Source: Escherichia phage EC.W14-3. From it: a stretch of 64,000 bases of DNA. This document shows positions 11,730-33,525 of the stretch, one piece after another; the stretch's first letter is position 1, and the number at the start of each line of letters is the position of its first letter. The notes under the pieces were generated by a model that had not been told where the DNA came from, did not search any database, and saw only the letters and a list, made by a program, of their open reading frames with translations. Where the stretch lies: sequence record PP496998.1. The stretch is one strand, 5' to 3'. Position numbers and translations under genes: made by a program.

Positions 11730-12147
11730 AACTTATATCCTTTACTTTTTAGCTTTCTTAGGAATAGTCTTTTTATCTATTCTTATTGAATTTGGTTTAA
11801 GTAAGTTAGTTAATTATTTAGGTAATAAGTAATTAATATTCTTTTAAATAGAGAATCAAAGTCCCTAGGAGTCCCTACAACCTAAATCAAGGATTCCTTA
11901 ATTCTCTATTTTTATCTCGCAGGTGGCTCCTGCCCTTCGGTACTTGCAAGGGATTCTGTGAATTGCCCAATATACAAGCCTGCAATAACTTTATCAGCTA
12001 TACAATATATACATTACTAGTGTGATATATCTACTACCAAAGATACTTATATTATATAGTACTCTTATCGGTATAAGCGTAATGTATACTATACATAACC
12101 GCTCAAAGAGAGCAACAATCTTTCAAATTAAATAAGGAAATTAAAAT
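11730..12147 (+). promoter_or_regulatory. AT-rich intergenic region upstream of SSB-like gene
   Basis: 418 bp without ORFs; TATA-rich repeats; TAATGTATA at 12080-12088 (plus) and its reverse complement at 12008-12016. Confidence 0.4.
12080..12088 (+). promoter_or_regulatory. TAATGTATA promoter-like motif
   Basis: exact 9-mer 60 nt upstream of ATG 12148. Confidence 0.4.
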
Positions 12148-12894
12148 ATGTCTATGATTCCAACTATCGCAACCGCTTCCCGTAAATCCAACTACGATGT
12201 AATCCCTGATGGTGAGTACGAAGCACGTATCGTTCGTGTAGTAGGTTTGGGTGTTCACAATCGTGACCCTTGGATTGACCCGAAGACCAAAGCAGTGACT
12301 CCTAAGAATCCGGCTTTCCGTATGGATTTAGCTTTCGAGCTGATTGGTGTTGATGCTACTGGTAAAGATTCCGATGGTAAGGCATTAGAACCACGTCCAG
12401 CTTGCCAGTTCAAGAGCTATGATGTAAACCCACGAGCTAAGAACTCTGGTATTCTTGATCTTTGCAAGATGATTGACCCAAGTATTCAAGCACTGAAAGG
12501 TGATCTATCTTGGTTCAAGGATGTTCTGTTAGGTCAGCCTGTTAACATTCTGGTTAACTCTTATACTAACAAAGCTGGTGAAGTTAAAAACTCCATCAAG
12601 ACCATTTCTCCAATCCCAACCAAATATCGTGCAGCAGTTGGTGAAGCTCGTAGTCCTCTGGTATTCTTCGAACCATATGCTGAAACCGACGAGAACGTAG
12701 CATCCTACCAACTGATGTTCCCGTTCCAGCGCAACCTGCTTACTCAAGCTAATGACGCTAAGAACATGCCTCTGGCTGGTCGTGAAATTACTCGTGCTTC
12801 TGAAACAGAGCAGAAAGAAGCTACTCCTTCAATCCCTACGATTGATAAAGAGCCTGCTTCTACTTACGAAGACGACAACGATAGCCCATTCTAA
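12148..12894 (+). CDS. single-stranded DNA-binding protein (T7 gp2.5-like), tentative
   Basis: 248 aa, host-optimal codons, acidic C-terminal tail ending ...EDDNDSPF (terminal Phe as in gp2.5), strong terminator after. Confidence 0.45.
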   Translation: MSMIPTIATASRKSNYDVIPDGEYEARIVRVVGLGVHNRDPWIDPKTKAVTPKNPAFRMDLAFELIGVDATGKDSDGKALEPRPACQFKSYDVNPRAKNSGILDLCKMIDPSIQALKGDLSWFKDVLLGQPVNILVNSYTNKAGEVKNSIKTISPIPTKYRAAVGEARSPLVFFEPYAETDENVASYQLMFPFQRNLLTQANDAKNMPLAGREITRASETEQKEATPSIPTIDKEPASTYEDDNDSPF

Positions 12895-12915
12895 TAACTC
12901 TCCTTGTTATAGCTT

Positions 12916-12940
12916 AGCCACCTCCGGGTGGCTTTTTTCG
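12916..12940 (+). terminator. rho-independent terminator
   Basis: perfect hairpin agccacc-TCCG-ggtggct followed by TTTTTTCG. Confidence 0.75.
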
Positions 12941-12951
12941 TTGGAGACAAC

Positions 12952-13302
12952 ATGCAAAACACATTAAGTGATAACTTAGGGTTTATCGTTTTCTCAGCTC
13001 TTGTATTCTTTGGTGGTATGAAGTTTAACGAATATCAAACAGACAGCAGTAATCTGGACAAAGAGAAGCACCAGCAAGAGTTAGAGATTGAAAGAAGTAG
13101 AGCAGCTGATGAAGTTGCTCAGAGAGTTCTTACCGGTTTATCTAACTGGAAGAAGAACACAGAAACCGTTTATAAAGAGATGCATTATGAGAAAACTAAA
13201 CCAGTTTTTTATGATGTCTGCGCTAGTGATGACTATGTCCGCATGTTCAATGATCGACAGCAGCAGGCAATCAATGCCCTTACCAACAAACCTAAAAGCT
13301 GA
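12952..13302 (+). CDS. putative i-spanin-like protein (N-terminal TMD plus charged periplasmic domain)
   Basis: LGFIVFSALVFFGGM hydrophobic segment then charged helical region; overlapped by +1-frame lipoprotein ORF. Confidence 0.4.
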   Translation: MQNTLSDNLGFIVFSALVFFGGMKFNEYQTDSSNLDKEKHQQELEIERSRAADEVAQRVLTGLSNWKKNTETVYKEMHYEKTKPVFYDVCASDDYVRMFNDRQQQAINALTNKPKS

Positions 13303-13446
13303 ATGCAGGGTTGACTTACCTTTTTTAGAGAGTGCTCAAGGAAAAGCACTAGCCACTACGTTGGAGTGGTATCAGGACCAGTACACAGAATGTGCTGCCA
13401 ATCACAATGGATTGTTAGAAGCTCTGAAAGAGCGTGGAATAGAATA

Positions 13447-13447
<1 letters not shown>
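13187..13447 (+). CDS. putative o-spanin-like lipoprotein
   Basis: +1 frame overlapping previous gene; MRKLNQFFMMSALVMTMSAC signal with lipobox-like MSAC. Confidence 0.35.
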
Positions 13448-14933
<1,486 letters not shown>

Positions 14934-32692: not shown

Positions 32693-33184
32693 TTAATATT
32701 TACCTTCGGTGTAAAGATTAGCTTCTGCAACTCTTCTATTATGAAGACCCTGACTTCTCTGCTTCTCTCCCTTGACCGTTATTTTATCCCAACGAAGAAA
32801 TTCGGAATAAACATCCCCCTTAACATCTCCATTGATTACCTTCCTTAACTTAGATGTGCTCAAAGCCCCACTGCCAACATTGAAGTTGAAAGAAGTGAGT
32901 GCATCAAACTCATGAACTAGTAAAGGAACCTTTATGTTCTTCTGAGTAGCACGAACAGAGTCTTGTGTGTCTCTATCTAGCAGAGCTAGACAATCCTCTA
33001 TAGAATACGTTAATCCTTGTCTAACCGGATAACCATTCATATCGCGCGTAGCCCCTACACATATAGTCCAGATACCTGCGGAATCTTTATAAGCCTTGGT
33101 TCTCATACCCTCATGCTTCATGATGAATTCCATTCCAGCTGGGCTTAAGTTTAATTGTACAGGTGGCAATGCGGCGTTATCCAT
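32693..33184 (-). CDS. GH24 (T4-type) lysozyme / endolysin
   Basis: E..D..T catalytic triad context HEGMRTKAYKDSAGIWTICVG; RBS GGAGG. Confidence 0.8.
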   Translation of the reverse strand: MDNAALPPVQLNLSPAGMEFIMKHEGMRTKAYKDSAGIWTICVGATRDMNGYPVRQGLTYSIEDCLALLDRDTQDSVRATQKNIKVPLLVHEFDALTSFNFNVGSGALSTSKLRKVINGDVKGDVYSEFLRWDKITVKGEKQRSQGLHNRRVAEANLYTEGKY

Positions 33185-33213: not shown

Positions 33214-33432
33214 TTAAGGTAGTATCTTTCTCAGAGCGTTAGATTCAGCATCAGGGCAAATAACAACTAAGTTATTTTGAATTGTTCTCTGCTTGCATTG
33301 AGAGCTAAGCTTCTCTACTGGAGCAGGGACAGTTACTAATGGATGAACTGCGCCTACAGGAACTGCGGTGGATACCACAACACCTGCGCCTAAACATATT
33401 AAACCATATGCAGCTTGTTTCATCATTTTCAT
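33214..33432 (-). CDS. small secreted or membrane protein upstream of endolysin
   Basis: 72 aa, hydrophobic N-terminal segment AAYGLICLGAGVVVSTAVPVGA; RBS GGAGA. Confidence 0.4.
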   Translation of the reverse strand: MKMMKQAAYGLICLGAGVVVSTAVPVGAVHPLVTVPAPVEKLSSQCKQRTIQNNLVVICPDAESNALRKILP

Positions 33433-33485
33433 TTGAGTGTCTCCTATATATTAACCTCTTGGGATATAGTAGTTTCATTACTTAT

Positions 33486-33512
33486 TCACCAGTTTTACTC
33501 CTAAAAGCCCCC
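33486..33512 (-). terminator. hairpin after tail fiber gene
   Basis: agcccc-cgaa-ggggct hairpin; short U-run on minus strand. Confidence 0.4.
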
Positions 33513-33525
33513 GAAGGGGCTTATC

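Follow-up and report, generated by a model that had tools for sequence, protein, structure and literature searches.

Essentially all experiments on spanins have been carried out on phage lambda, to which Kongari et al. (2018; PMC6139136) added their own tests on T4. Lambda Rz is an inner-membrane type II protein and Rz1 an outer-membrane lipoprotein, both with periplasmic Cys; the Rz1 gene is fully embedded in Rz, its product is proline-rich and unstructured, and the pair ends a single S-R-Rz/Rz1 cassette. The two-component spanin of T4, PseT.3/PseT.2, has a separated layout, lies away from the holin (t) and endolysin (e) genes, and complements lambda Rz/Rz1; PseT.2 has ~83 aa, two of them periplasmic Cys, and a helix is predicted at its C-terminus (PMC6139136). 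According to the same study, periplasmic Cys are found in nearly all two-component spanins. It lists phiEco32 as having an overlapped two-component spanin, whose i-spanin belongs to the family 'JH2', which includes Felix O1, and whose o-spanin belongs to a four-member family with NJ01, ECBP2 and KBNP1711. The T4 spanins fall in another family.

In RefSeq, phiEco32 gene 39 is named 'Rz-like spanin', and in some records gene 38 is named 'o-spanin'. Papers on Kuravirus genomes describe a holin-endolysin pair embedded among morphogenesis (late) genes; in one paper of 2025, the coordinates of the holin and endolysin and those of the o-spanin are about 19 kb apart. The spanin pair and its separation from the holin and endolysin are already known, having been catalogued in 2018 and described in the Kuravirus genome papers, and such a separation is classic for T4. 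No experimental report on the phiEco32-type spanin family was found in the literature that we searched.

The window (the whole stretch of 64,000 nucleotides that was analysed) carries, at 12952–13447, a gene pair that we take, with a probability of about 90%, to be a two-component spanin of overlapped layout from a phiEco32-like phage. The features of the locus, with gene numbers as in phiEco32, are as follows.

12952–13302, plus strand: putative i-spanin gene (gene 39), 116 aa; ATG start, phrog_1152, membrane helix
13174–13179, plus strand: AAAGAG, Shine-Dalgarno-like, 7 nt 5' of the o-spanin ATG and within the i-spanin coding sequence
13187–13302, plus strand: 116-nt overlap in two frames, encoding the i-spanin C-terminus and the o-spanin signal peptide and mature start
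13187–13447, plus strand: putative o-spanin gene, 86 aa (full-length form of gene 38); ATG start, lipobox, phrog_2425
13447–13887, plus strand: macro-domain gene (PF01661, E 3.3e-11; phrog_335), not a lysis gene

Over 2.6 kb around the pair, the window has the same sequence as Escherichia phages EC.W2-6 and EC.W8-1 (100% identity), and its identity to phiEco32, SU10 and many other Kuravirus (Gordonclarkvirinae) podophages is 97–98%. By sequence, the source DNA is that of a Kuravirus (phiEco32-like) E. coli podophage. The two genes are the same as those for phiEco32 gp39 and gp38, with 95% identity for the i-spanin and 94% for the o-spanin, and the spanins of Kuravirus and Suseptimavirus share the overlap, the neighbours and the distance from the holin and endolysin. 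The difference from phiEco32 amounts to a few substitutions in the overlap, e.g., MTMSAC in the window for MSMSAC in phiEco32.

The 5' neighbour of the pair is the gene 40 equivalent (12148–12894, 248 aa, function unannotated); on the 3' side follow, in order, gene 37 (the macro-domain gene), gene 36 (the phage sigma factor gp36) and gene 35. The first-pass annotation had placed the pair in a "replication module". This holds in part: the pair does lie on the plus strand of the window, in an arm of DNA metabolism and transcription genes, for which 'middle gene' arm is the better wording. The ATG of the macro-domain gene shares one base with the TAA stop of the o-spanin gene, and because of this the macro-domain gene probably forms a single transcription and translation unit with the spanin pair. 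In phiEa21-4 a macro-domain gene likewise follows the spanin pair (extracted piece L013, 3260–4042; 26% identity, E 4e-6). The sequences suggest that i-spanin, o-spanin and macro-domain genes may be an old three-gene module, present in the podophage studied here and in the myophage phiEa21-4.

The 248-aa product of the 5' neighbour (12148–12894, plus strand; phrog_6599) has an acidic C-terminus, ...YEDDNDSPF, similar to the C-terminal tip of single-stranded-DNA-binding proteins, which in E. coli SSB reads DDDIPF. Against NCBIfam, the product gave a weak match, below the cut-off, to a phage replication-initiation family (E 2e-5), and a PDB sequence search with it gave no match.

The 12952–13302 ORF had been described as having an N-terminal transmembrane domain and a charged domain of periplasmic type. 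The coordinates proved exact, and hydropathy supports the description. The hydrophobic stretch LGFIVFSALVFFGGM occupies residues 9–23, with a Kyte-Doolittle value of 2.23 over 15 residues; the membrane helix would extend over about residues 5–23 (nt 12964–13020), where the 19-residue value of 1.55 is borderline, the segment being short. The rest of the protein is charged (8 D, 9 E, 10 K and 5 R over all 116 aa). All eight aligned i-spanin homologues have the N-terminal hydrophobic segment, and in all eight the single Cys of the protein, C90 in the predicted periplasmic domain, is invariant. The gene is preceded by GGAG at 12943–12946, 5 nt 5' of the ATG. In a search against PHROG, the product matched phrog_1152, 'Rz-like spanin', with an E-value of 5.6e-37. 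A single-sequence AlphaFold2 model of low confidence (mean pLDDT 56.6) showed the membrane helix followed by helices at 34–76 and 86–111 with a short linker. A PDB sequence search with the i-spanin returned nothing meaningful.

The second ORF, 13187–13447, had been noted for a lipoprotein-like signal with a lipobox-like MSAC, and it does satisfy the PROSITE lipoprotein pattern and rules, with an R2/K3 n-region, M-S-A-C and Cys20. At its N-terminus (MRKLNQFFMMSALVMTMSAC/S), residues 1–19 are predicted to be the signal peptide and Cys20 the site of lipidation; the lipobox is encoded by nt 13235–13246, with the Cys20 codon at 13244–13246. Since the residue at +2 is Ser, and not the Asp of Lol avoidance, the protein is expected in the outer membrane. 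The mature form is predicted to have 67 aa, with two further Cys (C42 and C69) and only three prolines, and to be partly helical. C42 and C69, together with C90 of the i-spanin, are the predicted periplasmic Cys for homotypic disulfide links. The signal peptide is the only hydrophobic maximum of the protein. A unimolecular spanin (T1 gp11 type) was considered and rejected, as there is no C-terminal hydrophobic segment.

Against PHROG, the o-spanin matched phrog_2425 (E 1e-25), which is labelled 'unknown function', and weakly phrog_456, Rz-like spanin. Neither spanin gave a significant family in Pfam or NCBIfam, the sole hit being a weak one to the signal region of the BsmA lipoprotein. When the 64-kb window was scanned in six frames by rule, three lipoprotein-like ORF starts were obtained, compared to 1.0 ± 0.9 in shuffled sequences. 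Of the three, the 13187 ORF alone runs across the 3' end of a gene whose product has an N-terminal membrane helix; the other two starts had nothing but the pattern in their favour, and the 64 kb yielded no further spanin candidate.

The two genes overlap by 116 nt, and their start positions (1 and 2 modulo 3) put the second in the +1 frame, in agreement with the overlapped i-spanin/o-spanin layout proposed at first pass. To compare the frames, pN/pS was calculated for the window versus phiEco32, EK010, ECBP2, Bas86 and 101114UKE3. Over the 47 codons past the overlap, the ratio was 0.05–0.25 in the own frame of the o-spanin; of the control frames over the same codons, one gave 0.4–0.9 and the other contained almost no synonymous changes. 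By this measure, purifying selection past the overlap acts only in the frame of the o-spanin. The DNA identity between the window and ECBP2 was 83.6% in the overlap, and 78.0% and 70.3% in the two single-frame parts. In each single-frame part the differences fall chiefly at codon position 3, which is a coding-type pattern. Within the overlap they are mostly at position 3 of the i-spanin codons; the o-spanin signal peptide therefore takes up the variation. Both overlapping frames are, judged by these substitutions, real genes.

Homologues of both proteins are widespread. In tblastn searches of a phage collection, the o-spanin was found at full length, including the signal peptide, in 198 records and the i-spanin in 436; the relatives include Felix O1-like phages, phiEa21-4-like Erwinia phages, 9NA-like Salmonella phages and Proteus phages, and several are annotated as i-/o-spanin. 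The overlapped layout also occurs in six other lineages. Among seven o-spanins (Kuravirus, Suseptimavirus, Sashavirus and three Ounavirinae; identity 25–94%), the lipobox Cys and C69 are invariant. In the Felix O1-like phages (Ounavirinae; Mushroom gp124/123, SUSP1 and phiEa21-4 gp12/13), both proteins are homologous to those of the window, at 25–32% identity. Their pair is likewise overlapped and far from the endolysin, lying amid early and nucleotide-metabolism genes. The Ounavirinae differ in being myophages with an otherwise unrelated genome, in which the upstream neighbour of the pair is not homologous.

At the overlap itself, three relatives (EK010, KM01 and Bas86) carry an HNH-AP2 homing-endonuclease gene, exactly in the overlap position, which has turned the overlapped pair into a separated one. 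The inserts, in the extracted pieces, are as follows.

EK010 (piece L004), 688–1725: endonuclease insert
KM01 (piece L005), 685–1725: endonuclease insert
Bas86 (piece L007), 421–1458: endonuclease insert

In all three, the overlap segment is present in two copies that flank the insert: at the 5' copy the i-spanin ends with a new short tail, and at the 3' copy the mature o-spanin begins. Both spanin genes are intact despite the separation. The o-spanin has a different signal peptide, which still ends in the lipobox Cys; the sequence for this peptide, like the o-spanin ribosome-binding site, lies across the 3' end of the endonuclease gene, and in EK010 and KM01 a perfect AAGGAG precedes a GTG start. 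The pair thus tolerates being split, and it is the lipoprotein signal that has been kept. KM01 combines a Kuravirus-type i-spanin with an EK010-type tail, which, by sequence comparison, suggests that the endonuclease cassette may have moved along with its flanks.

In the Bas86 record the i-spanin is annotated as a two-piece join. A group I intron was rejected as the explanation: an Rfam search of EK010, KM01 and Bas86 (E ≤ 1) found none, and the upstream ORF is complete, ending in a stop codon of its own. The insert is therefore read as a free-standing homing-endonuclease gene. The same type of event is described in the T5 family, where Shivani and phiR201 have a GIY-YIG endonuclease (Kongari et al. 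2018, PMC6139136); the split in EK010, KM01 and Bas86 is a second example of a known phenomenon and not a new one. It may be noted that in SU10 (piece L003, 1405–1818) and CHD5UKE1 the i-spanin gene is separated from the gene-40 homologue by an endonuclease gene of another type, HNH/NUMOD4. The spanin locus is thus a repeated target of mobile endonuclease genes.

In most public records the o-spanin starts further downstream. Gene 38 of phiEco32, SU10 gp034, ShigP1_00076 ('o-spanin'), ECBP2_0033 and the published o-spanin of vAPECPW12 are all called from Met30, corresponding to 13274–13447 of the window (174 nt, 57 aa), a call that leaves out the signal peptide and the lipobox. It could be argued from these records that only the 57-aa form is made, or that the ORF 13187–13447 is a chance frame, and that there is hence no lipoprotein; lipobox-like starts do arise about once per 64 kb by chance. 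Remote homologues, however, align from residue 1, with M1, L4, L13 and C20 invariant; the Shine-Dalgarno-like AAAGAG at 13174–13179 precedes the 13187 start and is invariant in our alignment (A1); and the replaced 5' end in EK010 and KM01 again encodes a lipoprotein signal. The purifying selection in the o-spanin frame also speaks against a chance ORF. Gene callers, moreover, commonly miss or miscall overlapped o-spanin genes (Kongari et al. 2018, PMC6139136). We regard a chance or Met30-only ORF as extremely improbable. The start at 13187, as chosen at first pass, is better than Met30, since the homologues, the ribosome-binding site and the lipobox agree on it, and the Met30 start in most public Kuravirus records is, on these sequence comparisons, a systematic mis-annotation.

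A pair of a membrane protein and a lipoprotein need not act in lysis. It could have a role such as superinfection exclusion or receptor masking, for which T5 Llp and the Cor proteins, lipoproteins made before the late genes, would be models. The position of the pair, in the middle-gene arm beside regulatory and metabolic genes and not beside the endolysin, fits such a role, as does the label of phrog_2425, the best family of the o-spanin. Against it stands the strong match of the i-spanin to the Rz-like spanin family. In Salmonella phage Solent and Proteus phage PM-CJR, furthermore, a homologous overlapped pair makes up the last genes of a holin-endolysin-i-spanin-o-spanin cassette, and this position ties the spanin family to lysis, even though the pair in the window is itself outside any such cassette. 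The tight overlapped two-gene layout and the conserved periplasmic Cys are a spanin signature, the T4 spanins are likewise distant from their endolysin and yet complement lambda Rz/Rz1, and the 64 kb offers no alternative spanin candidate. A non-lytic role is thus very unlikely.

The endolysin lies at the following position, together with a candidate holin.

32693–33184, minus strand: GH24 (T4-lysozyme-type) endolysin, 163 aa (PF00959, E 3.7e-32)
33214–33432, minus strand: candidate holin, 72 aa, one membrane helix (phrog_11161 'holin', E 2.8e-50)

Both lie in the late structural operon, ~20 kb from the spanin pair, where the first-pass annotation had put a GH24 endolysin preceded by a small signal-bearing protein; the Pfam match bears out the former, and the membrane or signal segment of the 72-aa protein the latter. 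The endolysin has no N-terminal hydrophobic or SAR segment (maximum Kyte-Doolittle 0.82 over 19 residues) and should therefore need a holin. The holin label of 33214–33432 comes solely from its position and the PHROG name. Its hydrophobic N-terminal segment might just as well serve as a cleavable signal peptide (...VPVGA/VH), and the C-terminal part has two Cys; the product could be a secreted protein rather than a holin. On the minus strand at 33433–33525, after the tail-fibre gene and directly 5' of the holin-endolysin pair, the sequence GCCCC-TTCG-GGGGC forms a hairpin that, with the T's after it, is terminator-like. The gp36 promoter motif occurs at 33445–33453 with one mismatch (TAATATATA), abutting the ribosome-binding site of the candidate holin.

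The GH24 gene is situated between tail-fibre and tail-protein genes of the late structural operon, as might be expected if its product were a virion-borne, wall-piercing entry enzyme. The endolysin of lysis would then be elsewhere, and the apparent split would result from a wrong endolysin call. The product, however, is a small stand-alone single-domain lysozyme of 163 aa; its gene comes directly after one for a small membrane protein, as holin and endolysin genes are usually paired; published Kuravirus analyses call the two holin and endolysin; and a scan of five neighbouring genes revealed no match to a peptidoglycan hydrolase. We consider a virion-borne enzyme very improbable. The proposal that lysis functions are split between two loci is supported: the pair is an overlapped spanin, judged by homology, membrane signals, layout and conservation, and the endolysin and candidate holin occupy another locus. 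The alternative raised with it, that one of the calls is wrong, is unneeded.

From the analogy with lambda Rz/Rz1 and T4 PseT.3/PseT.2, we infer the localisation of the proteins, the formation of a complex, membrane disruption and the timing of expression. The i-spanin would be anchored in the inner membrane by its N-terminal helix, with a helical periplasmic domain. Translation of the o-spanin would begin at a separate start codon; after export, the protein would receive its lipid on Cys20 and be carried to the outer membrane. Through their C-terminal parts the two proteins would bind each other, giving a complex that spans the periplasm, and the intact cell-wall mesh would keep this complex inactive. 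Late in infection, the candidate holin (33214–33432) would release the GH24 endolysin (32693–33184), and degradation of the wall would free the spanin complexes to fuse or disrupt the outer membrane, completing lysis. A spanin that is harmless until the wall is gone has no need for co-regulation with the endolysin; with peptidoglycan as the gate, the spanin genes can belong to a different transcription unit.

Compared with the lambda pair, to which it would be alike in its two membrane anchors and its presumed wall-gated activity, the pair of the window differs in that the genes merely overlap, the o-spanin is longer and the pair lies 20 kb from the endolysin. With its few prolines and partly helical prediction, the o-spanin is unlike lambda Rz1 and like T4 PseT.2.

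The expression of the pair was considered with reference to the following two elements.

12080–12088, plus strand: TAATGTATA, identical to the middle/late promoter motif published for gp36, the phage sigma factor of phiEco32
12916–12940, plus strand: terminator-like hairpin AGCCACC-TCCG-GGTGGCT with a T6 run; MFE −19.5 kcal/mol (12895–12955), z −2.7

The hairpin ends ~12 nt before the i-spanin ATG, a gap that leaves no room for a promoter, and no good sigma-70 or gp36 motif was found just 5' of the i-spanin gene, the 12-nt gap included. The gp36 motif is the one given in the paper on SU10 and in a NAR paper of 2025. TAATGTATA, which fronts the gene 12148–12894, is the nearest plus-strand copy upstream of the spanins. 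A scan of the window gave 22 matches versus 21 expected, no richer than chance, and promoter assignments therefore rest on the literature; the position of this copy is only suggestive for the spanins. The published class boundaries place the pair in the middle-gene block, so that its temporal class would be middle. Transcription that reads through the hairpin is the most likely source of spanin mRNA. Further downstream, at 13859–13888 (plus strand) and just 5' of the sigma-factor gene (13907–14554), there is a near-consensus sigma-70 promoter (TGGACA, 18-nt spacer, TATAAT), in agreement with the SU10 homologue, for which a promoter of its own, likewise with an 18-nt spacer, has been described.

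The stem of the hairpin is invariant in ECBP2, Bas86 and EK010. Hairpins with different stem sequences occupy the same position in phiEa21-4 (piece L013, 2722–2741), Mushroom and SUSP1; those in pieces L011 and L012 lie at 2918–2935 and 2717–2738. A GC-rich tetraloop hairpin with a T-run is thereby seen 12–25 nt 5' of the i-spanin ATG in Kuravirus/Suseptimavirus, phiEa21-4, Mushroom and SUSP1. Such a hairpin might be a conserved means of adjusting spanin dosage or timing through read-through, or of stabilising the 5' end after RNA processing, but we put this forward as a tentative and rather doubtful idea. If true, the hairpin would uncouple the supply of spanin from the late holin-endolysin operon.

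Beyond annotation quality, these results are of little importance; the correction of the o-spanin start is the one practical point. Most deposited Kuravirus genomes are affected by the Met30 start, including RefSeq phiEco32 and one paper of 2025. Cloning of the Met30 ORF for lysis or engineering would be expected to yield a non-exported, non-functional fragment.
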